DNA from: Candidatus Hydrogenedentota bacterium | GTDB taxonomy: Bacteria > Hydrogenedentota > Hydrogenedentia > Hydrogenedentales > SLHB01 | Direction: 5' to 3' | NCBI GenBank assembly: GCA_029974275.1 | Contig: JARKSN010000093.1 | Location: forward strand, 1 to 36,039 | DNA length: 36,039 nucleotides | In this document: positions 15,847 to 25,886 of the stretch, in pieces | How positions within the stretch are numbered: position 1 is the first letter of the stretch | How the letters are laid out: each line of letters begins with the position of its first letter | The notes under the pieces: generated by a model | What the model was told of the DNA's origin: nothing | The model's database searches: none | What the model saw: the letters and a program-made list of their open reading frames with translations, nothing else | Translations under genes and position numbers: made by a program

Positions 15847-17202
15847 ATGGAAACAGTTCTAACATCGCTGGAGACCGTCTTGACGAAGGTCAACGGCGTT
15901 GTGTGGGGGCCAGTCATGTTGTGCCTGCTTTTCGGCGCCCACTTGATTTTGACCTATCGGCTACGCTTCATTCAACGCTACATTGGCACGGGCATTCGTC
16001 TTTCCCTGGCGGGGCGGGAAGGCGGACAGGGCGACATCAGTCATTTCGGCGCGCTCACGACGGCCCTGGCGGCGACCATCGGAGCCGGCAATATCATTGG
16101 CGTGGCGACGGCGATTGGGATTGGCGGTCCGGGCGCGGTGTTGTGGATGTGGCTTACGGGCGTTTTCGGGATCGCCACCAAATACGCCGAGGCGCTTCTG
16201 GCGGTCAAATACCGCGTTGTCACGCCCGACGGACGGACCGTCGGCGGGCCCATGTACGTGATCGCGCGCGGACTGAAATGCAAATGGCTTGCGGCGCTGT
16301 TCGCGGCGTTCACGGCAATCGCCGCGTTTGGCATTGGCAACATGTATCAGGCCAATGCCATTGCCTCGCTGGCCACGGAGACGTACGGCATTCCCCCTTG
16401 GGTTTCGGGCTCCCTCATGACGGTCTTGACTGCCTTGGTTATCTTAGGCGGCATCCGGTCGATCGCGCGCGTCTGCGAAATTCTTGTTCCCTTCATGGCG
16501 ATTGCCTATGTGGGCGGATGTCTGATTCTGCTGGCGATGGGGTGGCGAGGAGTTCCCGAAACGATAGGGTTGATCTGTTCCAGCGCGTTTACCGGTCATG
16601 CCGCGGCGGGCGGTTTTGCCGGCGCCGGAGTCATGATTGCGATCCGCTGGGGCATTGCCCGGGGGCTTTTCTCGAACGAATCCGGTCTGGGAAGTGCCCC
16701 CATCGTAGCGGCGGCGGCGCGAACCCGGAATCCTGTCCGCCAGGCATTGGTGTCTTCCACCGGCACTTTTTGGGACACCGTCGTGGTATGCTTACTGACC
16801 GGCATCGTTCTGGTGAACTCCGGCGAATGGCTCACCGGATGCAAGGATGCCGCGTTGACCAAGGCCGCGTTTGGCGATATTCCTCACCTTGGCCCTTTGG
16901 TCCTGAACGTGGGGCTGCTGACGTTCGTGTTTTCGACCATTCTCGGATGGTCCTATTATGGGGAGCGCGGCGCCGAATACCTCTTCGGGCCGCGCATCAT
17001 CTTTCCCTATCGCCTTCTTTGGGTCGCCAGCGTGATGGCGGGGGCGCTGGCGAAGCTTTCCCTGATCATTTCCTTTGCTGATATCGCCAACGCCTTGATG
17101 GCCGCCCCCAACCTCATTTCCCTGCTGCTTCTGAGCGGCGTGGTGGTGAAGGAGACCCAGAAATACCTTTGGAACCAACATCTTGACGATCCCGAAGACT
17201 AG
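15847..17202 (+). CDS. Alanine/glycine:cation symporter (AGCS family)
   Basis: ALAATIGAGNIIGVATAIGIGGPGAVLWMW, GGPMY, ARGLFSNESGLGSAPI, DTVVVC, FSTILGWSYYGE, ALMAAPNL. Confidence 0.93.
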   Translation: METVLTSLETVLTKVNGVVWGPVMLCLLFGAHLILTYRLRFIQRYIGTGIRLSLAGREGGQGDISHFGALTTALAATIGAGNIIGVATAIGIGGPGAVLWMWLTGVFGIATKYAEALLAVKYRVVTPDGRTVGGPMYVIARGLKCKWLAALFAAFTAIAAFGIGNMYQANAIASLATETYGIPPWVSGSLMTVLTALVILGGIRSIARVCEILVPFMAIAYVGGCLILLAMGWRGVPETIGLICSSAFTGHAAAGGFAGAGVMIAIRWGIARGLFSNESGLGSAPIVAAAARTRNPVRQALVSSTGTFWDTVVVCLLTGIVLVNSGEWLTGCKDAALTKAAFGDIPHLGPLVLNVGLLTFVFSTILGWSYYGERGAEYLFGPRIIFPYRLLWVASVMAGALAKLSLIISFADIANALMAAPNLISLLLLSGVVVKETQKYLWNQHLDDPED

Positions 17203-17336
17203 CCGGATTCCCCTTTCTTGACCGGAGCCGGGTTTCACGAAAAACTTGCTTTTTCCCTGCCGGATATGTAATGTTCGGTAAGGTCAAAGGTAATATGGTC
17301 AAGAGCGAGAAAATTATTTAGGCCGGTGATAGGGTG

Positions 17337-17365
17337 TTGACATTTGTACATCTGGATGGTATAGT
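17337..17365 (+). promoter_or_regulatory. Strong sigma70 promoter upstream of the peptide genes
   Basis: TTGACA (17337-42)-N17-TATAGT (17360-65) with TG extension and AT-rich upstream sequence. Confidence 0.75.
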
Positions 17366-17374
17366 ACACCATCC
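17354..17374. promoter_or_regulatory. Operator-like palindrome over the -10/+1 region
   Basis: GGATGGT-atagtac-ACCATCC, perfect 7-bp arms. Confidence 0.45.
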
Positions 17375-17438
17375 GTGGTGCGTTTAGGGTTACAATGGCT
17401 GGTAGTTGTGGGCTGGCGCCCCACGCAAGGAGGCAGCC

Positions 17439-17561
17439 GTGAAGCACGTTCGTAAAATATCGGCACTGCCCAGCGTTGCCGAAGACAACAAGCCCTTTGA
17501 TATTACGTTCATTACGGATATCATGCGGGCCTTCATCACCAAGAAGAGCGCCCAAACATAG
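17439..17561 (+). CDS. Putative RiPP precursor peptide 1 (40 aa): MKHVRKISALPSVAEDNKPFDITFITDIMRAFITKKSAQT
   Basis: AAGGAGG SD (17427-33) before GTG; shares the MKH leader and F..KK motif with the next two ORFs; below the ORF-track length cutoff. Confidence 0.8.
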   Translation: MKHVRKISALPSVAEDNKPFDITFITDIMRAFITKKSAQT

Positions 17562-17700
17562 GCCTCTTGGATAAGCGAGGAACTAGCCGCACGGTTCCAT
17601 GTGGGAACTAGGCGGAAAATGTAGTTCCGGGCCTGTTGCATACGTGAGAGTTATGCGGCGGCTCGAGGGGAAAACGGACAATGAACAAGGAGATTTCGCA

Positions 17701-17841
17701 ATGAAGCACATCAAGCACGTCACCGTGGCCAAGGCTGAGGCAAAGACCCTTCGCAGCGCCTTCGCGAATCTGAAGGAAGACCTGCAGAACGCTCTCGAAG
17801 CGTTCAAGGTGGAGAAGAAGGCCCCGGCGCAGCCCGAGTAA
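17701..17841 (+). CDS. Putative RiPP precursor peptide 2 (46 aa): MKHIKHVTVAKAEAKTLRSAFANLKEDLQNALEAFKVEKKAPAQPE
   Basis: AAGGAG SD (17687-92) before ATG; strongly biased codons (AAG, GCC, TTC, CTG); MKHIK start. Confidence 0.85.
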   Translation: MKHIKHVTVAKAEAKTLRSAFANLKEDLQNALEAFKVEKKAPAQPE

Positions 17842-17863
17842 TCGTACTCGAAGGAAGATCAAC

Positions 17864-17983
17864 GTGAAACACACGCGATTGGTGTCGAAAGTCCGCAAAG
17901 CGGATGCGTTTACTGATTTTTTGAACAGAGCGCAACGCGCTTGGTCGGACTTTGTGTTCGCCAAGAAAAATGCGGGTGGATAA
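17864..17983 (+). CDS. Putative RiPP precursor peptide 3 (39 aa): MKHTRLVSKVRKADAFTDFLNRAQRAWSDFVFAKKNAGG
   Basis: AAGGAAG SD before GTG 17864; MKH leader, A-D junction, FxxxKK motif. Confidence 0.8.
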   Translation: MKHTRLVSKVRKADAFTDFLNRAQRAWSDFVFAKKNAGG

Positions 17984-18004
17984 AAGATCGTAGGGTGTAT
18001 TCAG

Positions 18005-18043
18005 ATACCGGGGCTTCCTTGTGGAGTCCCGGTATTGTTTTGT
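18005..18043 (+). terminator. Terminator/attenuator-like hairpin between the precursor genes and the modification genes
   Basis: ataccggggcttc / ggagtcccggtat 13-bp stem (G-U pairs) followed by tgttttgt. Confidence 0.7.
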
Positions 18044-18124
18044 CTGTCGGCGCCGCGCGTATCCTGAAGCGGCATCATCCGGAAGACGTGGCGTAGCCTG
18101 CCGTAACTTCAAGATTGTTCAAAG

Positions 18125-18661
18125 ATGATACAGGGACTTCACACTTCCATACGAACGGCGGAACTCGACGACCTCGGCATGCTGAGCCAATTTTACGATC
18201 CGGAGCGTCCGCGTTCTCTTTATCTCGATCGACGATGCGAAGTATACTGTCCCACCAAGGACGAATTGCGCGAGATGCTGACGCGCCCGGATGTGCGCGC
18301 TTCGCTCGGATTCTTGGTCGTGGAGGACGCCGAGGGCGTAATCCGGGGTTTTTGCGCTCTGCGAGGCATCACCCAGGAAGCCGCGTTGGCGGATATGTTG
18401 CTGGGTTTTTTGGCCCCCCTCGATTTCGCCACGCCCGTGGCAGAGGAGACGTTCGCGTATCTCAAGCGCCGGGTCTTTACGGAACTGCGTCTGGAAAAGC
18501 TCATGGCGCGCTGCTTGGATTTCGAGAGCGAATATCGGCAATTCCTGATGCAGCAAGGCTTCACGAGCGACGGCGTGCAACGTGAAGTCGTGTATGCGAT
18601 GGGCGCCTACCACGACCTCGAGAGTTTCACGCTCGTTAAACAACCGGAGAGGACAGACTGA
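18125..18661 (+). CDS. RimJ/RimL-type GNAT N-acyltransferase (divergent)
   Basis: IRTAELDD N-terminus; VFTELRLEKLMA..GFTSDGVQREVVYAMGAYHD C-terminal signature. Confidence 0.75.
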   Translation: MIQGLHTSIRTAELDDLGMLSQFYDPERPRSLYLDRRCEVYCPTKDELREMLTRPDVRASLGFLVVEDAEGVIRGFCALRGITQEAALADMLLGFLAPLDFATPVAEETFAYLKRRVFTELRLEKLMARCLDFESEYRQFLMQQGFTSDGVQREVVYAMGAYHDLESFTLVKQPERTD

Positions 18662-18662
18662 C

Positions 18663-19298
18663 ATGGCGCTCAAAACCGGCATGTTCCTGCGCAGGGCCGA
18701 GCGGGATGACATGGATACGGTGGTCACCTGGATGGACGATCCGGATTTTCTGCATTTTTTGTATGGCGATCCCGTCCGATCTCCGAAGCAAATCCGCGAA
18801 CATCTTACGGCCGTTCTCGGTCGTAACGCTCCCAACACCGTGCCGTCTGGAATGTACCTCATCGTGGAATCGTCCGAGCATGGACCGGTCGGTCTGGTGT
18901 CCATTATGAACATAAGCTGGCGCAACCGATCGTGCAGTCTCGACGCCTACATCGGCAACAAGAGCCTGCGATCGGGCATGGTGGCGGGCATTTCCCTATA
19001 CCGCGCCATGGAATTCTGTTTCGACGAACTCAATCTGCACCGCATCACGACTTACATCTATTCTTTCAACAGTCCCTCGTGGAGGCTCATGGAACTGAGC
19101 GGGGCCAAGCGCGAACTTGTGATGCGCCATCATGTGCCGCGCGACGGGAAGCTGTATGACCTCTACGCGTACGGCCTGTTGCGCCGCGAGTTCGAGACTC
19201 TTCGGGAGCGACAGGCCGCTCGTTTCAAGGGGAAGTCGTTGGCGGAGATGATCGCCGCGCAACAAGAGGCCTTGGCCCAAGCGGAGACGGCCCCGTGA
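18663..19298 (+). CDS. RimJ/RimL-type GNAT N-acyltransferase
   Basis: FLRRAERDD, PVGLVSIMNISWRNRSC, FCFDELNLHRI..FNSPSWRLME, RDGKLYDLYAYGLLRREF; GGAGAGG SD. Confidence 0.88.
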   Translation: MALKTGMFLRRAERDDMDTVVTWMDDPDFLHFLYGDPVRSPKQIREHLTAVLGRNAPNTVPSGMYLIVESSEHGPVGLVSIMNISWRNRSCSLDAYIGNKSLRSGMVAGISLYRAMEFCFDELNLHRITTYIYSFNSPSWRLMELSGAKRELVMRHHVPRDGKLYDLYAYGLLRREFETLRERQAARFKGKSLAEMIAAQQEALAQAETAP

Positions 19299-20014
19299 TG
19301 CTCCTGTTGCAGGCGGCATTCTGGGGCATGCTGACGTTCCATCTTATCCACGCGCTGATGACGCACCGTGGAGGGGCGCCGGCGGCGCGCGGACGGTTTT
19401 CCAATTTCGTCCTCGTGTCCCAAACCCCCTTGTTCGTTATCGCATGCTATTTCACGGCATCCCAGGGCCTTTTTTCGCGGCAACTGGTATCGCCGCTGTA
19501 CATTGCCTTGGGGGTTGCCGCGGGACACTTGGTGTTTGGCGCTTCGCTGTTGATTACGCATCGTTCCTGGCGCGATGTCACCGCTTACTTCATCGATCTG
19601 AAGCCGATTTGGACGTTCCTCAAGGACAGTCCCCTGGTTTTCATGCGTTTTACGACGGTCGCGATCGTGGAGGAAATCATCTGGCGTTCCGCCGCCCAGC
19701 CCTTGTTGATTTCCGCGACGGGCCTTCCCCTGGTCGGCATACTTGCCGTTGCGGCGGCGTTTTGCATCGTGCACGAACATATTTTCACGAATCCCATCAT
19801 GGTCACCCTCGAGTTCCTCGGCTTTTCGCTTTTGTTGGGCGTTCTGTTTTATTTCACGCACAGTCTGATCTTGGTCATCGTGATCCATGCGGTGCGCGAC
19901 ATCGAGATCGCCTATCTTGAATATGCGGAGAAAGCGGATGAGTTGGGGGACCCGGAATTGGCTTTGCAGGAGTATGAGAAATCGTTGACCCGCCGGCATC
20001 TGGAGAAAGCATGA
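19295..20014 (+). CDS. CPBP (CAAX/Abi) family intramembrane metalloprotease
   Basis: Multiple TM segments; VEEIIWRS (EExxxR), FCIVH (FxxxH), IHAVRD (HxxxD/N); overlaps both neighbours. Confidence 0.88.
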   Translation: MMLLLQAAFWGMLTFHLIHALMTHRGGAPAARGRFSNFVLVSQTPLFVIACYFTASQGLFSRQLVSPLYIALGVAAGHLVFGASLLITHRSWRDVTAYFIDLKPIWTFLKDSPLVFMRFTTVAIVEEIIWRSAAQPLLISATGLPLVGILAVAAAFCIVHEHIFTNPIMVTLEFLGFSLLLGVLFYFTHSLILVIVIHAVRDIEIAYLEYAEKADELGDPELALQEYEKSLTRRHLEKA

Positions 20015-21027
20015 GCAGCGAATACGCCATTCACGTCGACAGTGTCGATAAGGTGTTTTACACCCGGCACTTCTTCAAACGGAATCCGGACACCAACCAA
20101 TTGAAATGGTATGAGAAACGGCATATTCATGCGGTGGACCATGTCCAGTTCGGCGTGCGGCCCGGTGAAATTTTCGGGTTGCTTGGCCCCAACGGCGCAG
20201 GCAAAACCACGACGGTCAAAATGCTCAGCGGCTTGGTGCGGCCCGACGGGGGCGCGGTGTATATCGACGGGCTCAATGTTGAAACGCGGCGCAAGCAGAT
20301 TCTCAGAAAGATCGGGGTCGTGCTCGAGGGCACGCGCACGGTGATTTGGCCGCTGACGCCGCTCGAGAACTTGGCCTATTTCGGCAATCTGCGCGATGTG
20401 CGCGGCTCCGTCCTCAAGAAACGCTCCCATGAATTGTTGGATTTCATCGGTCTGCGCGAGAAAAAAGACGTGCAGGTGCGCCGATTGTCTCGGGGGCAGA
20501 AGCAAAAACTGGCCATTTGCATCGCGCTGGTCACCGATCCGCACGTCATTTTGCTGGACGAGCCGACCACGGGGTTGGACGTGCAGAGCGGACGCAGCAT
20601 CAAAGAGAAAATCATCGAGATGACCCGCATGCACGGCAAGAGCGTTCTCGTGACCACGCATGACATGCATGTGGCCCAGGAACTGTGCGATCGCATCGGC
20701 ATTATTGATCGGGGCAAGCTGATTGCGTGCAAGACCACCGAGGAGATGCTGACGTTGAGCGGCGACCTCGTCTATGAGGTTCGTGTTGATCGCCCCCTCT
20801 CCCCCACGCTGCTCGCGGATATCGAAGGGGTGATTTCCGCCCGGGAATTGCCCGACGGCGAGGGATTCGGATGCGCGGTGCGGCTTGCGGCTGACGACGA
20901 ATCCCGTTCGCGCGCATTGTATGGCGTCATGGATCGTCTCAAGGCCAACCACTATAGGCTTCTTTCGATCGATCGCCACAAGCAAATGCTGGAAGACGTG
21001 TTCCTTAAACTTACGGGCGGCGCGTAG
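20011..21027 (+). CDS. ABC-2-type exporter ATP-binding protein
   Basis: GPNGAGKTT, LSRGQKQK, LLDEPTTGLD, TTHDM, C-terminal LEDVFLKLTG. Confidence 0.93.
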   Translation: MSSEYAIHVDSVDKVFYTRHFFKRNPDTNQLKWYEKRHIHAVDHVQFGVRPGEIFGLLGPNGAGKTTTVKMLSGLVRPDGGAVYIDGLNVETRRKQILRKIGVVLEGTRTVIWPLTPLENLAYFGNLRDVRGSVLKKRSHELLDFIGLREKKDVQVRRLSRGQKQKLAICIALVTDPHVILLDEPTTGLDVQSGRSIKEKIIEMTRMHGKSVLVTTHDMHVAQELCDRIGIIDRGKLIACKTTEEMLTLSGDLVYEVRVDRPLSPTLLADIEGVISARELPDGEGFGCAVRLAADDESRSRALYGVMDRLKANHYRLLSIDRHKQMLEDVFLKLTGGA

Positions 21028-21052
21028 CAGCGGCAAAGGAGTTTTTGCGCTC

Positions 21053-21982
21053 ATGGGTCTCTTTCTTGTGTTGAAAGCCGAGGTTGTACGAAGCCTCATT
21101 ACGATGCGCCGGTATTGGCTTGCGTCCCTGATCGGTCTCATCATCGGCTATGGCATGCTCATCGCGCTGATTTGGGCCTTTACCACTGGCGGCCAAAGCG
21201 CGGTGGGCGAGAAGATCAAGGAGGGCGTCACCTCGCGGGTCGTGGGCAGCGCGTCCCTGGAGGCGCCTCCCGAATCTTCCGGAACGGACGGGGAGCCTGT
21301 CGCCGTTCCCAAGCCTTCCGAATCCCCCAAGGAACGGGGCACGAAGATCATGAACGGCGTGTTGGGCTTGCTCATCGGGCTTTTCGCGTTTAGCATCATA
21401 GGCATGTTTTCGCAAGGGCTCGCGGGGATGGCGCAAAGCGGCGAGTTGGAGCAATTGTGCATGAGCCCGCATGGGTTGTTGGGCAATTTCCTGGCGCGTT
21501 CTTTTGTGTCGGCGCTCACCAACATCCTGTCTTCGTCGATCCTGGTGGCGCTGGTGTCGATCACGATTCCCGGCGGCGCGCTGCATTTCTCCGCCGGGGC
21601 CATTCCCGCATTGCTGGCGCTCACGTACGTGAACCTGTTGGGATTCGGCTTCATGGTCGGGGGGCTGGTGTTGGTGTTCAAACAGACTGGGCAAGTGGCC
21701 ATGTTGATTCAGATCGCCATGCTGTCGATGTCGATCGCCGCCTCCAAGAGCATGAGTGAATGGCCGTTGCTCATCCGAATTGTCGCCCATATCATGCCCA
21801 TGACGGACGCGACCGTGTGTCTCAAGCTGGTGTTGTTGGATGGCGTGGGCATGCAGGTCTTCTCGTATCCCTCGTTTTTCTTCCTGTTGATCAACTGTGC
21901 GGTGTGGACGAGCATCGGCATCGCTTGCTTCAAGTTCATGGAAAATTGGAGCCGCAACAAAGGAACCTTGGGGACGTATTAG
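21053..21982 (+). CDS. ABC-2-type exporter permease
   Basis: About 6 TM segments, GELEQLCMSP motif; AAGGAG SD before ATG 21053; directly follows the ATPase gene. Confidence 0.85.
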   Translation: MGLFLVLKAEVVRSLITMRRYWLASLIGLIIGYGMLIALIWAFTTGGQSAVGEKIKEGVTSRVVGSASLEAPPESSGTDGEPVAVPKPSESPKERGTKIMNGVLGLLIGLFAFSIIGMFSQGLAGMAQSGELEQLCMSPHGLLGNFLARSFVSALTNILSSSILVALVSITIPGGALHFSAGAIPALLALTYVNLLGFGFMVGGLVLVFKQTGQVAMLIQIAMLSMSIAASKSMSEWPLLIRIVAHIMPMTDATVCLKLVLLDGVGMQVFSYPSFFFLLINCAVWTSIGIACFKFMENWSRNKGTLGTY

Positions 21983-23911
21983 ATGGGCGAGCGCGTCGCG
22001 ATTCACCGCTTCGAACTGGATGGAAGGCGGTTTGCCATCGATCCGGAGACCTGTTTTTGCTTCGAGTGCGATGCGGTGTCGTGGGACGTGTTGGAGCACT
22101 ATCCCCATGAAACCGCGCAACGCATCTATCATCTGCTGGGCGATCGCCACGACCTTAAGGAACTGTCGGAAGTTCTTGGGGAACTTGAATGGTTGCGCGC
22201 CAGTAAATCCATCCTGCCGGCCTATACCCAGGAGGAACTGCAAAAACATTTTGAGATCGATTCCGGTCTCAAGCGAGTGACGGTTCGTCTGCCGCGCGAA
22301 TCAGGCGCGTCTTCTCCTGCGCGGCGCGGCTGGTTTGTCCGCGGCGCGGCTCAGCCTGCCCCAGGCATTGCCGGGAGAGTTCAGGAAGCCGTGACGTTGT
22401 TGCTGGGACGCAGTCAAAAGCAACAAGATCTCCACCTTGAGTTTATTGAGGAGCGTTCTCGTTTCAACCCGGAGGCGCTTGCCGGATTTTGCGTTTCCGC
22501 TATGCAATCCGCCTCGCTGGCAGGCAAGAATCTTACTGTGTCGTTTCGCGTCGACGGCGTCTCGCTTGATGGCATGGGCGGCGTTCTCCACGGACACAAC
22601 GTCTCGGCTGCGATTGAGTTTCGCGAATCCGCCGATGCGGCTCGCAGCTTGGCCGCTTTTGCCAAAGCCCTGGAGTCCCGGAGCCCCGAACGCCTTGCAA
22701 AGGCGATGCAGCCTGGCGGAGAGCACATCTCGGGGCGCCTCATCGTGCAGCCTGGGCATCCGGCTTTTGGCGGCGTGGCGGCGGCATTGCACCAGGCGGG
22801 TTTTACTCTGATAGAACTCGATCTGGACGGTTCTTTCGTCGTCCATCCGGAATTGGCCCCCGATGCGATGCTGCCGGCGATGACGGAAACCGCCGTAGCG
22901 TATGCGCAGACGCTGCTCAAGGGGGCGTATTTTCGTTTAGACCCTATCGCCACGTTGTTTTGGCGCATCTATAGCGGCCTTCCCATGCGGCGGACGGACC
23001 CGATTGGGACCAACGAGCTTGTCATTGACGAGGACGGGGCGGTATATCCTTCACGTCATTTCGTTGGCCTTTCGCCGTTCCGCTGCGGTTCCGTGGCGGA
23101 AGGGCGTCTTGATAATGACCGGATCAAGCCCTATGAGGACGTGGGGGCGTTGACTACGGCTCCGTGCATTGACTGTTGGGCGCGCCATCTGTGCGGCGGC
23201 GGAACCGCGGCGGTGCATCATGCGCTCACGGGCTCCTTTCGCACGCCGCATGAGGCATGGTGCGACGCCCACCGCGCCTGGCTGGCTTCGGCGGTTTCGG
23301 CGTTCAACATGCTGTCGTCGGCGGGCGTAAGTTTCACCAACCTGTATCATCGTTTGGGGAGATTGCCCCGCCCCTCCTTGTTTGCCATGGCGCGCGCCGC
23401 GTTTCGTCCTGGCATCGGTGTGCGTCCTATTGAAGAGAGCGATGCGGACTGGCTCGTGAAGTGGGAGAATTGGAACGAGGCGACCTATTTCACGTATTCC
23501 ATAGGAGGAGCCTTGCTCACTACCAAGTATGACCGCGAAATGGATGCGGCGCATCCTTCTCTGGACGTGCAGGAAATGGTGTTGACGAAAACCGACGGGA
23601 CCGCTTTCGGGTTGGTGCGCTTGCAGCCGGAAATGCTCGACGGCGTCGTGCGTGCGCGGGTGTATCTTCGTCATGAAGCGGACTATGCCGACGAATCCAT
23701 CCGCAAAGGGTTCCGGGGGCTGCTCAAGGAGGCCTTGGGGCATCAGTCGTTGCGTCGGGCGCTGGCGCCGGCAGGCGCGCATGACGCATCCTTGCGATCG
23801 TTCCTCGAGGGATCCGGTTTTACTCGGATCGGCGTTGAACGCGAGGGGCTCTATCTGCACGGTCGCTATCTTGACGTGTGGCATTACGAGGCTGTTTCTG
23901 ACGAATTGTGA
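21983..23911 (+). CDS. Degenerate CteB/ScfB-like RRE-radical SAM-SPASM protein fused to a C-terminal GNAT domain
   Basis: N-terminus IHRFELDGRRFAIDPET..DAVSWDVLEHY (RRE-like); no CxxxCxxC; SPASM-like LVIDEDGAVYPSRHFVG..GSV..CIDCWARHLCGGG..WC; GNAT VRPIEESD..GFTRIGVEREGLYLHGRYLD. Confidence 0.8.
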   Translation: MGERVAIHRFELDGRRFAIDPETCFCFECDAVSWDVLEHYPHETAQRIYHLLGDRHDLKELSEVLGELEWLRASKSILPAYTQEELQKHFEIDSGLKRVTVRLPRESGASSPARRGWFVRGAAQPAPGIAGRVQEAVTLLLGRSQKQQDLHLEFIEERSRFNPEALAGFCVSAMQSASLAGKNLTVSFRVDGVSLDGMGGVLHGHNVSAAIEFRESADAARSLAAFAKALESRSPERLAKAMQPGGEHISGRLIVQPGHPAFGGVAAALHQAGFTLIELDLDGSFVVHPELAPDAMLPAMTETAVAYAQTLLKGAYFRLDPIATLFWRIYSGLPMRRTDPIGTNELVIDEDGAVYPSRHFVGLSPFRCGSVAEGRLDNDRIKPYEDVGALTTAPCIDCWARHLCGGGTAAVHHALTGSFRTPHEAWCDAHRAWLASAVSAFNMLSSAGVSFTNLYHRLGRLPRPSLFAMARAAFRPGIGVRPIEESDADWLVKWENWNEATYFTYSIGGALLTTKYDREMDAAHPSLDVQEMVLTKTDGTAFGLVRLQPEMLDGVVRARVYLRHEADYADESIRKGFRGLLKEALGHQSLRRALAPAGAHDASLRSFLEGSGFTRIGVEREGLYLHGRYLDVWHYEAVSDEL

Positions 23912-23972: not shown

Positions 23973-25886
23973 GTGATTCTATGCGCTTTGTTTTTGGCCG
24001 CTGTTGCACTAATGCTGTTGTTGTCTGATCGCGCCCATGCCGATGGCTCGGAATTCACCGTCGAGCCAGGGCCTGGACCTTTTCCATGGACGCATCTCTC
24101 TCCTCAAAACGACGCCCGCAATTTTCACTTCGCCATCCTGGCCGATCGCAGCGGCGGCATTCGCGATGGCCGCTTTGAACACATTGTCGATCGCCTCAAT
24201 CTTTTGCGCCCCGAGTTCGTTGTGCATATCGGCGACATTATCGAAGGGGCTCCCAACGATATGGCCGAAGTCAACGCGCAATGGGACGAGGCCTTTGAAC
24301 TCATCAAGCCGATCGAGGCGCCCCTCTTCATCGTACCCGGCAATCACGATGTGAATAATCTTGCCCAGGCCAAGGTCTGGGAAGAACGGCTGGGGAGGCT
24401 CTACTATCATTTCCTGTACCAAAATGTCCTATTTCTTGTGCTGCACACCGAGGACCCTCCCGGAAAGCAAATCAGCGCCGATCAAGTCGCCTATGCCGCG
24501 CGCGTGCTTGCCGATCATCCGGATGTTCGGTGGACCTTCGTGTTGCTGCACGTGCCGTTGTGGATGTATTCGCACGAGCATCGGTGGGAAGAGATCGAGG
24601 CCTGTCTTGCGGGGCGCAAGCACACCGTTCTAGCGGGCCATATGCACGAATACATCAAATACGTTCGTAACAATGCGAGCCACATCGTTCTTGCGGCGAG
24701 CGGGGCGTGGACTTTTGGACGTGGCCCGGAATACGGCGAGTTCGATCACATTACGTGGATTGCGATGGACGACAATGGCCCGCGCATCACGAACTTGCTG
24801 GTTGACGGCATCCGCAATGAAAACGTCAACACCATCGAGATGCGCAAGGCGCTCATGCCTGTGCGCCGGGGCGAGATCGTCACCTCGACGGGCGCGTGGT
24901 GTTCGGGCGATCTTTTCACGGGCGGCGCCACCCGGCTGCGTTTGTGGAACCCGCTTGATCGCCCCATGGATTTTCAACTGCTTTTGCACCCTTCGCGCCA
25001 AATGGAGCCCAGCGTCACGGCCATTGAGCGCACGCTTGCCCCGCGCGAGGATCATTACGTTGAAGTCCGCCTGCACGCCCCCTCTCCCCTTTCGTTTCGC
25101 GAGATAGACCCGCTTCGTGCGACGTGGCGCATCGCTTGTGATTTTCCGGGCCGTGAGCGCGTGCACATGCATGGCGCGCATCGTATCGTCGTCGATGGCG
25201 TCCATGTCTGTCCGCGCCGGACGTTTGATGGAGCCGTGGATGCGCAGCTTGATAAATGGGGCGAGTTGCCGTGGCGTTGTCTCGAACCCGGGCAAATCTC
25301 GCAGTGTCCTGACCAGTGGGCCGGGCCCGCGGACTGTTCGTTCCGTTTTGCCACTGCCTACGACGAGGATTACGTGTATGTCGCGGTGCGCGTGACCGAT
25401 GACGTTCCCATGTTTCGGGGACGCAAAGACCCTTGGCGCAAGGACGCCGTCATCATTCTTCTCGACGCCCGGTCGGAATCGGAGCGAACGACATTGGACC
25501 ACCGTTGGGTGAACACGGAGATGGAGTGGGAACTGGCGCGGATGTACGGACGCTACCCCGGTCCAGGGGCGTTCCGCGACTATCTGTTCTTGGGTGTGTC
25601 GTTGGGCGCGACGCCTGAGGAATGCACGATCTACGAAGAGCATTTGCAGCCTGCGGGACTGCGCTATGCCTCTCGTCTGGAACCGGGCGGCTATGCCGTC
25701 GAGGTGGCGGTTCCTGCCGCATACCTCAACGCCCGGCAGAATTATTCCTGGAACGCCTTTCGTTTGAACATCAGCGTTTTCGACTGCGACGGCAATTACG
25801 CAGGTCCTCACAAGGCCCTGTGGTGGCGACCTTCCTGGAGCAGCGCCGAGAGCGTTCCGAACCAAGGACTTTTCCGGAAAGGGTGA
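23973..25886 (+). CDS. Secreted calcineurin-like metallophosphoesterase with C-terminal CBM9/DOMON-like domain
   Basis: Signal peptide ..AHA; ILADRSGG, HIGDIIEG, PGNHD, LLHVP, AGHMH; C-terminal VDAQLDKW..YDEDYVYVAVRVTDD..DAVIILLD..YAVEVAVP. Confidence 0.8.
   Translation: MILCALFLAAVALMLLLSDRAHADGSEFTVEPGPGPFPWTHLSPQNDARNFHFAILADRSGGIRDGRFEHIVDRLNLLRPEFVVHIGDIIEGAPNDMAEVNAQWDEAFELIKPIEAPLFIVPGNHDVNNLAQAKVWEERLGRLYYHFLYQNVLFLVLHTEDPPGKQISADQVAYAARVLADHPDVRWTFVLLHVPLWMYSHEHRWEEIEACLAGRKHTVLAGHMHEYIKYVRNNASHIVLAASGAWTFGRGPEYGEFDHITWIAMDDNGPRITNLLVDGIRNENVNTIEMRKALMPVRRGEIVTSTGAWCSGDLFTGGATRLRLWNPLDRPMDFQLLLHPSRQMEPSVTAIERTLAPREDHYVEVRLHAPSPLSFREIDPLRATWRIACDFPGRERVHMHGAHRIVVDGVHVCPRRTFDGAVDAQLDKWGELPWRCLEPGQISQCPDQWAGPADCSFRFATAYDEDYVYVAVRVTDDVPMFRGRKDPWRKDAVIILLDARSESERTTLDHRWVNTEMEWELARMYGRYPGPGAFRDYLFLGVSLGATPEECTIYEEHLQPAGLRYASRLEPGGYAVEVAVPAAYLNARQNYSWNAFRLNISVFDCDGNYAGPHKALWWRPSWSSAESVPNQGLFRKG

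Follow-up and report, generated by a model that had tools for sequence, protein, structure and literature searches.

An apparently retained SCIFF-type leader and recognition element beside a radical SAM protein without its cluster motif in Hydrogenedentota

Can a pathway for peptides that are made on the ribosome and then modified after translation (RiPPs) keep its leader and the domain that reads it while the core peptide and the chemistry are exchanged? This question is raised by an operon in a 36,039-nt stretch of Candidatus Hydrogenedentota bacterium (assembly GCA_029974275.1, contig JARKSN010000093.1; hereafter the window), in which three short peptide genes lie upstream of the gene for a 642-aa fusion protein. 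An earlier, sequence-only reading of this DNA had proposed that the leaders and an N-terminal RiPP recognition element (RRE) were inherited as a matched address from ranthipeptide systems, in which SCIFF precursors are served by the maturase ScfB (CteA and CteB in the thermocellin system), and that the six-Cys core was replaced. As judged from the sequences, homology and statistics speak strongly for a leader and RRE that stayed together through a change of core and chemistry. The genes and domains concerned are as follows.

17439-17561, plus strand: precursor peptide 1 (pep1), 40 aa, GTG start, strong Shine-Dalgarno site AAGGAGG 6 nt upstream
17701-17841, plus strand: precursor peptide 2 (pep2), 46 aa, with a Shine-Dalgarno site
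17864-17983, plus strand: precursor peptide 3 (pep3), 39 aa, GTG start, with a Shine-Dalgarno site, class ..RADAFTDFLN..AW.DF..KKNE
21983-23911, plus strand: 642-aa fusion protein (RRE, radical S-adenosylmethionine (SAM) barrel without cluster motif, SPASM remnant, GNAT domain)
22001-22201, plus strand: RRE (residues 7-73), from AlphaFold2 (AF2) models, Foldseek and phmmer
22052-22069, plus strand: CxCxxC triad C24, C26, C29, on and next to RRE strand beta3, the putative leader-pairing strand

The translations are MKHVRKISALPSVAEDNKPFDITFITDIMRAFITKKSAQT for pep1, MKHIKHVTVAKAEAKTLRSAFANLKEDLQNALEAFKVEKKAPAQPE for pep2 and MKHTRLVSKVRKADAFTDFLNRAQRAWSDFVFAKKNAGG for pep3, starting with MKHVRKIS, MKHIKHVT and MKHTRLVS, respectively; the leaders of the first two read MKHVRKISALPSVA and MKHIKHVTVAKAEA. 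The MKHIK start of pep2 and the His3 of all three peptides, pointed out in the sequence-only reading, stand in the window where it had placed them, as does the start that it quoted for the maturase-like protein, including DAVSWDVLEHY. Both strands of the window hold five short open reading frames (ORFs) with an M-K-H start, three of which are the tandem pep1-pep3. Together with 60 related loci, the window yielded 91 unique peptides of 38-73 aa, on which the leader statistics are based. The motif shared by pep1-pep3 and their relatives is M-K-H-[ILV]-x-x-[ILVM]-[ST]..P..A, with H in 85 and R in 6 of the 91 peptides at position 3, I, L, V or M in 89 at position 4, I, V, L or M in all 91 at position 7, and S or T in 90 at position 8. 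Further along the leader, P stands at position 11 in 48/91 peptides and A at position 14 in 67/91.

For comparison, SCIFF was sampled as 120 cluster representatives, 117 of which could be anchored at the start and 115 of which were used for an 8-position profile. The starts MKHIK (35), MKHVK (17), MKKHI (13) and MEKKH (12) were counted among the anchored representatives, in line with the earlier statement that SCIFF precursors begin MKHIK, and this commonest start is also that of pep2. Annotated plasmid scfA/scfB pairs carry MKRIITLS.. in Bacillus and MKRIVTLS.. in Brevibacillus, while the precursor of an unannotated scfA/scfB-type pair in Acetoanaerobium starts with MKKHIKTLS...; the H/R alternation at position 3 is common to both families. 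The SCIFF leader pattern MKH[IV]K.[LI][NST] was found in the pep1-pep3 family. The SCIFF profile gave the 91 Hydrogenedentota leaders a median of 12.3 bits, and among 46,893 ORF N-termini of the same genome a single one scored as high. For the reciprocal profile, derived from the family and run on SCIFF leaders, the median was 16.2 bits, with once more only 1 of the 46,893 ORF starts at that level. CteA residues -18 to -10 (precursor residues 1-9) are described as a bound beta-strand that lies against beta3 in the RRE of CteB (PMC6231123), in agreement with the earlier reading. In a paper on RREs, 'HIxxI (sactipeptide)' is named as one of the recognition sequences already characterised, with its place in the alpha3/beta3 cleft (PMC12710340), and the family leaders match it. 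A complex prediction with fusion protein residues 1-100 and pep3 scored 0.16 and 0.15 against a mark of 0.32; run without controls, it speaks neither for nor against binding.

Behind the leader, the likeness ends. The Cys-rich SCIFF core CGxCQTSCQSACKTSC is not present in the window, where the cores of pep1-pep3 are Cys-free, and any Cys at all occurs in only 8 of the 91 family cores. The core is an amphipathic or hydrophobic stretch whose inner part is Lys-free in 60/91 peptides, and a K followed by E/N/D or similar stands within the last 16 residues in 79/91. The class of pep3 (class W) accounts for 28/91 peptides and has 160 clusters in a public protein collection, all unnamed or 'hypothetical' and none with a Pfam domain. 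No Pfam or NCBIfam match was obtained for pep1-pep3, no NHLP or Nif11 leader was found in them, and a PDB sequence search with pep2 returned nothing relevant.

The other half of the proposed pair is the fusion protein. Its ORF starts with MGERVAIHRFELDGRRFAIDPETCFCFECDAVSWDVLEHY..., its N-terminal segment is ..IHRFELDGRRFAIDPET..DAVSWDVLEHY, and the same region reads ..AIHRFELDGRRFAIDPETCFCFECDAVSWDVLEHY.. A Pfam scan of the 642 residues gave no match at all, and NCBIfam matched the SPASM part only (best not_ScfB and ScfB, at 56-58 bits where the cut-offs are 855 and 425); the ScfB model TIGR03974 itself reached 56.2 bits, from the SPASM part alone, below its cut-off of 425. When the protein was searched by phmmer against all PDB sequences, the sole strong match was CteB (5wgg, E 2.4e-18), aligned in two collinear stretches, 6-196 to 6-196 (independent E-value 1.1e-5) and 343-432 to 351-440. 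In the AF2 model (predicted local distance difference test (pLDDT) 85.7), the topology of an RRE is followed by a barrel, by a linker at 461-475 and by a GNAT at the C-terminus, and Foldseek with the whole model ranked CteB first (E 1.4e-16; template modelling score 0.72 on target length), followed by GNATs. Overall fold and collinear order are thus those of CteB by both phmmer and Foldseek.

Of the 18,950 NCBIfam models, only not_ScfB (5e-4), ScfB (0.03) and QhpD (0.08) matched the first 100 residues at E<=10. DSSP assigned the same elements in two AF2 models, b8-12, b15-20, b25-29, a31-37, a45-52 and a58-73. Modelled alone, the domain had a pLDDT of 86.5, and Foldseek placed CteB 5wgg_A first (root mean square deviation 1.1 A over 71 columns, 30% identity), ahead of TbiB1, lasso B1, PqqD, LynD, TigE, TruD and McbB. 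By its modelled topology and its Foldseek and NCBIfam matches, the N-terminal domain is an RRE of the PqqD/wHTH type; a domain of another type, which would have refuted the earlier reading, is not what is present. A first search for relatives of the fusion protein returned 269, and the best 120 of these, all ~640 aa long and ~50% identical, are almost all labelled Hydrogenedentes where named. No other part of the protein is as well conserved as the RRE, with 23 invariant columns in 95 residues and a mean column identity of 66% vs 52% for residues 1-460.

The CxCxxC triad is a new feature, with Cys in 118, 119 and 119 of the 120 family proteins, and is present neither in ScfB/CteB nor in the divergent fused relatives P0278, P0281, P0284 and P0306. 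His3 of the leader was considered as a fourth metal ligand of this triad and rejected, since 6/91 leaders carry Arg beside H-type leaders under the same RRE, and SCIFF has His3 without the triad.

The enzymatic core behind the RRE has fared differently, as can be followed at three sites.

22280-22333, plus strand: site of the lost CxxxCxxC motif (residues ~100-117), from the CteB alignment; disordered in the model
23165-23263, plus strand: kept SPASM cysteines C395, C398, C404 and C427, each in 120/120
23408-23911, plus strand: C-terminal GNAT domain, from Foldseek, and PF13420 in homologues

In the phmmer alignment, CteB 'dcnlrckyc' stands opposite the Cys-free stretch 'resgassp..arr' of the fusion protein, and the radical SAM motif is therefore gone. 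Cys occupies the three aligned CxxxCxxC positions in 1, 0 and 0 of the 120 family proteins, and no family representative has a C...C..C pattern; the AF2 model is disordered at the former motif, with pLDDT below 50 for residues 107-125. The SPASM pattern CX2CX5C plus a downstream C is kept in 120/120, and we take C395, C398, C404 and C427 to be the ligands of auxiliary cluster II (Aux II) under the anSME/SPASM scheme. The other, Aux I-type SPASM positions, the upstream pair and the fourth Cys of CX3C, are mostly lost (Cys in 0, 22 and 13 of 120), and the protein does not have the cysteines of a two-auxiliary-cluster SPASM domain. With neither CxxxCxxC nor Aux I cysteines, the 642-aa protein is, on its sequence, a dead radical SAM enzyme.

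What could have taken over the chemistry? The plus strand of the window carries, in this order, pep1-pep2-pep3, GNAT1, GNAT2, a CPBP protease, an ABC ATPase, an ABC-2 permease and the fusion protein, and the remaining features of the operon are as follows.

17337-17365, plus strand: promoter-like site TTGACA-17-TATAGT, 11/12 matches, with TG extension
18004-18046, plus strand: terminator-like hairpin (14-bp stem, at 18004-18036) and T-run, between pep3 and GNAT1
18125-18661, plus strand: GNAT1, divergent GNAT-fold protein, Pfam match below cut-off
18660-19298, plus strand: GNAT2, Acetyltransf_3-type N-acyltransferase, PF13302 54.7 bits vs cut-off 25.4
19295-20014, plus strand: CPBP/Rce1-like intramembrane protease, PF02517 41.2 bits vs cut-off 22.4
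20011-21027, plus strand: ABC transporter ATPase (DrrA-like), from Pfam and NCBIfam
~21053-21982 (start codon uncertain), plus strand: ABC-2 type permease, weak ABC2_membrane matches for 21071-21982

The GNAT fold was found in all three candidates, the fused domain, GNAT1 and GNAT2. For the fused domain, Foldseek returned SpeG 4mj8, a lasso-peptide acetyltransferase (9iy3) and 1nsl at E ~5e-8 to 1e-7, with probability 1.00 to many GNATs; PF13420 is precomputed in homologues of the fusion protein, and the domain has many invariant polar residues. GNAT1 and the fused GNAT are paralogues (BLASTP 28% identity over 139 aa, E 2e-8; hhalign probability 98.5%), and hhalign gave a probability of 92.5% for GNAT1 and GNAT2; a search of GNAT1 against PDB sequences found no match at E<=0.1. 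GNAT2 is the best conserved enzyme of the operon (50-66% identity across loci) and has diamine/spermidine and aminoglycoside N-acetyltransferases as its nearest solved relatives. To the lasso-peptide and SpeG-type acetyltransferases among these relatives, sequence identity is 15-20%. The translation of the CPBP protease reads EEIIWR, FCIVH and HAVRD, which we take to be the family motifs EExxxR, FxxxH and HxxxD/N.

The order peptides-GNAT1-GNAT2-CPBP-ABC-ABC-fusion is fixed in the 60 loci, with varying flanks. Of the 44 loci whose upstream DNA extends for 4.5 kb or more, 36 have 1-6 tagged peptide genes 4-5.7 kb upstream of the fusion homologue on the same strand. The fusion protein occurs in 122/135 Hydrogenedentota species genomes, in 82/86 of high quality and in 60/66 genera, mostly in single copy. 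As a side observation, records titled Nitrospiraceae, Nitrospirales or Bathyarchaeia (10 loci) bear this operon, otherwise specific to Hydrogenedentota, at ~50% identity, which suggests binning or labelling errors in metagenome-assembled genomes.

The leader motif also extends beyond the operon. In its strict form it was found in 9/19,833 small ORFs of the same genome that are preceded by a Shine-Dalgarno site, and eight scrambled motifs gave 0, 0, 3, 0, 0, 4, 0 and 1 on the same ORFs. A degenerate DNA pattern, ATG-K-H-hydrophobic-x-x-hydrophobic-S/T, had 387 matches, with 2-18 in each of the taxonomic family's 41/41 genomes, compared with 28 for the backward and 38 for the swapped M-H-K control pattern. 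Away from the operon, contig C224 of the same genome carries a tandem set of four tagged small ORFs, C268 a pair, and C24 and C204 a single one apiece; the P..A continuation is found in most of them. The C224 array (~16560-17440; L070 3562-4442), with the starts MKGHIKTIS.., MKHIRPLP.., MKHMKRIS.. and MKHRTKHV.., is far removed from the operon and has a PEP carboxykinase-like gene on one side and a minus-strand ORF on the other. The tagged genes on C268, C204 and C24 (L087 3747-4154, minus; L088 3826-3972, minus; L086 4005-4142, plus) all have P..A and adjoin hisD, secG, AhpC-like and AIR-synthase-like genes. The neighbours of these off-operon ORFs are housekeeping genes, and no maturase is among them. 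One copy of the machinery probably serves ~10 tagged peptide genes scattered over each genome. As a near-universal trait of the phylum with scattered tagged genes, the system is more than the one-off re-engineering of a pathway. The earlier reading had noted neither the lost radical SAM motif and the GNAT fusion nor the spread of the operon and of the tag.

Taking these parts together, we consider it likely that the operon encodes leader-guided maturation and export of peptides, in which a recognition module homologous to that of SCIFF/ScfB has been kept, the chemistry has been exchanged and the ScfB-like protein serves as a pseudoenzyme adaptor with a GNAT. We infer the steps of this pathway as follows. 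The first ~8 residues of the leader would, with good probability, form a beta-strand paired with RRE strand beta3. The tethered helical core, amphipathic or hydrophobic, might then be N-acylated by GNAT2 and/or the GNAT1-type domains, a step that we propose tentatively, with the conserved Lys at the end of the helix as the likeliest site. The CPBP protease would cut off the leader after the P-x-x-A site and/or a short tail, and the ABC-2 pump would export the product. A wider reading, which we hold to be less likely than not, is that the MKH/HIxxI leader is a phylum-wide sorting tag: in nearly all Hydrogenedentota genomes, a single-copy pseudoenzyme adaptor, left with its RRE, one cluster site and the new CxCxxC site, would hand ~10 peptides to the GNATs, CPBP and ABC-2, and the products would be housekeeping acylated amphipathic peptides of the envelope or surface.

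A number of findings weigh against this account, some of which concern ancestry. A profile of residues 1-460 run against 1.84 billion proteins found ~45 family representatives, none with CxxxCxxC and almost all with CFCFEC, then a few divergent fused forms without the triad, and then active radical SAM-SPASM enzymes. The best NCBIfam model among 36 of the 60 nearest active relatives was ScfB for 29, a Nif11-type model for 3, QhpD for 3 and PapB for 1. In a quick IQ-TREE run (LG+G4, SH-aLRT only; 116 rows, fragments and rows outside 430-535 aa dropped), the dead family is united in one clade at support 98, and its long branch falls outside all 96 active radical SAM-SPASM relatives sampled (support 100). 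True ScfB is a clade of 22 rows and not the specific sister of the dead family, so ancestry is given only at the level of the ScfB/QhpD/PapB/Nif11-maturase group. What these comparisons establish is descent from the group of ranthipeptide-type maturases; they do not trace it to ScfB proper. The idea of an inherited address with a replaced core holds for the SCIFF N-terminal motif, the RRE, the absent six-Cys motif and the conserved Lys, and is not borne out for descent from ScfB itself: in this tree of 116 rows the dead family lies neither inside nor beside the true ScfB clade. The active ScfB-like genes of the Hydrogenedentota genomes searched, considered as possible ancestors and inspected at 12 loci, have no tagged ORF in ~1.5-kb flanks.

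Other adverse points come from the operon and its enzymes. No adjacent precursor was found in 8/44 loci by tblastn with the 91 peptides and a listing of small ORFs, both confined to the locus, and 4 of these also have no GNAT1. About 3 of the 91 peptides have no terminal Lys, most of the 12 outside the majority pattern having the same Lys slightly further in. GNATs bind the acyl-CoA pyrophosphate through a Q/R-x-x-G-x-G/A loop. Inspection by eye of the consensus of each of the three GNAT-fold parts revealed no clear coenzyme A (CoA) loop of this kind, and the fused GNAT may itself lack catalytic activity.

Three other explanations were weighed. The RRE may have come from an ScfB-like ancestor while the likeness of the leaders is convergent or generic, any short HIxxI-type N-terminal strand fitting this group of RREs, so that no pair was kept. 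The SCIFF hidden Markov model TIGR03973 (cut-off 50 bits) indeed has no match to pep1-pep3 at E<=10 and does not exceed its cut-off anywhere in the genome, while B. thuringiensis scfA, as a positive control, scored 71.6 bits; the leader likeness is therefore confined to ~8 residues, a point that also counts against the account above. According to the accessible text, some recognition sequences recur across unrelated RRE groups (PMC12710340), and the tree does not tie the dead family to true ScfB. However, the likeness goes beyond H-I-x-x-I to the extreme N-terminus, K2, H/R at 3, a basic residue at 5 and S/T/N at 8, the profile tests reach 1/46,893 in both directions, and the nearest relative of the RRE is the SCIFF enzyme by three methods. 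We therefore regard convergence as improbable.

Much the same standing, that of an unlikely alternative, is given to the idea that the MKH tag serves chiefly for export or processing and is read by the ABC-2 pump or CPBP, with the RRE vestigial or in another role such as regulation or assembly. It would suit the ~10 tagged genes per genome far from the operon, the dead enzyme core and the want of clear CoA loops in the GNATs. Yet a vestige is hardly expected of the RRE, because it is the best conserved part of the fusion protein, and the homologous CteB strand carries the same leader segment. Finally, the fusion protein might still be a redox or metallo-enzyme acting through the four-Cys SPASM site and/or CxCxxC, with a non-radical modification that the GNATs merely cap. 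The invariant SPASM cysteines, the nearly invariant triad and a barrel modelled at high confidence favour such a role, but the SAM-cluster ligands are gone and their segment is disordered in the model. Moreover, cores are Cys-free in 83/91 peptides, and thioether chemistry is therefore impossible for most of them; we hold this explanation to be very improbable.

Among known systems, SCIFF/ScfB (CteA/CteB, thermocellin; TIGR03973/TIGR03974) stands closest. The precursor start M-K-H-[IV]-K/R-x-[LI]-[STN], the collinear barrel and SPASM, and a precursor gene in the maturase operon are shared, whereas the fusion system has no CxxxCxxC, no Aux I ligands and cores without the six-Cys motif. In addition, the Hydrogenedentota system has a fused GNAT, two further GNATs, a CPBP protease and an ABC-2 pump, as well as several precursor genes within an operon and many others dispersed over the genome, and its hosts are Hydrogenedentota instead of Clostridia or Bacilli. 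For the chemistry, we propose the selidamides (kamptornamide, phaeornamide) and nostolysamides as a working model, by analogy to which acylation may take place in the fusion operon; in the available parts of the reports, a leader-dependent GNAT acylates a Lys/Orn side chain (PMC8784127, PMC13647313, PMC13060382). Those systems use NHLP or Nif11 leaders with lanthionine synthetases and no radical SAM-derived adaptor, in contrast to the SCIFF-type leader of the fusion operon. The lasso-peptide iterative acetyltransferase (9iy3) and SpeG-type enzymes, among the nearest solved structures to the fused GNAT and GNAT2, have amine acceptors. As described in the accessible part of its report, the lasso enzyme acts on the mature peptide without a leader, unlike the system proposed here.

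The adaptor logic has a parallel in azoline and cyanobactin pathways, where inert RRE-bearing adaptors (the E1-like part of LynD/TruD, F proteins) are once-enzymatic scaffolds that present the leader-bound peptide to another catalyst. The fusion protein appears to share this logic, with a radical SAM/SPASM fold as ancestor here and an E1-like fold there. Prochlorosins and Nif11 leaders offer a precedent for many dispersed precursor genes with one leader, diverse cores and one maturation enzyme. They differ in leader family, chemistry and taxon, and only the Hydrogenedentota trait is near-universal in its phylum. No literature on such a system of RRE, dead radical SAM and GNAT was found, including in the text of the selidamide and RRE papers; most subscription journals and the supplements of the RRE paper lie outside this coverage.

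If the wider reading of a phylum-wide sorting tag is true, the pathway would be a housekeeping one instead of an occasional antibiotic cluster, and no earlier instance would be known of a radical SAM enzyme of RiPP maturation turned into a scaffold that reads leaders without radical chemistry. The operon also offers a naturally occurring and testable example in which, on the account favoured here, RiPP leader and reader domain stayed together through a swap of catalysis, which is the design rule of hybrid-leader peptide engineering. RRE, dead radical SAM/SPASM and GNAT in a single protein make a new architecture for genome mining, and tools that require either a Pfam match or CxxxCxxC would miss it, since Pfam is silent on the 642-aa protein and the motif is gone. 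An unnamed peptide family is indicated, with 160 'hypothetical' clusters in class W alone. Being near-universal and single-copy in an uncultured phylum of sludge and sediment, the system may belong to the basic cell biology of Hydrogenedentota.

The peptide genes are bracketed by the promoter-like site and the terminator-like hairpin. Contigs identical to 17313-17997 occur in RNA libraries of 4 metatranscriptome runs from 3 studies, and one contig of 685 nt covers all three peptide genes. The contigs start at 17313-17359 and end at 17992-17997 in 3 studies, just 5' of the hairpin, which is a weak hint of termination; as contigs, they show that the sequence was present in RNA libraries and say nothing of where transcripts end or how abundant they are. 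None of the contigs of the four runs covers 18008-19500, which, for contigs, is silent on expression of the enzyme genes.

Two further observations concern the surroundings of these genes. The gene downstream of the operon (23973-25886) encodes a metallophosphoesterase with a CBM9-like domain according to Pfam; it is not conserved beside the operon in the 60 loci and is therefore not part of the system. GNAT1 and GNAT2 nearly abut in the window, and in 8/60 loci (L002, L007, L010, L012, L015, L028, L030, L057) they are ~570-600 nt apart, a gap in which this subgroup may carry an extra small gene.

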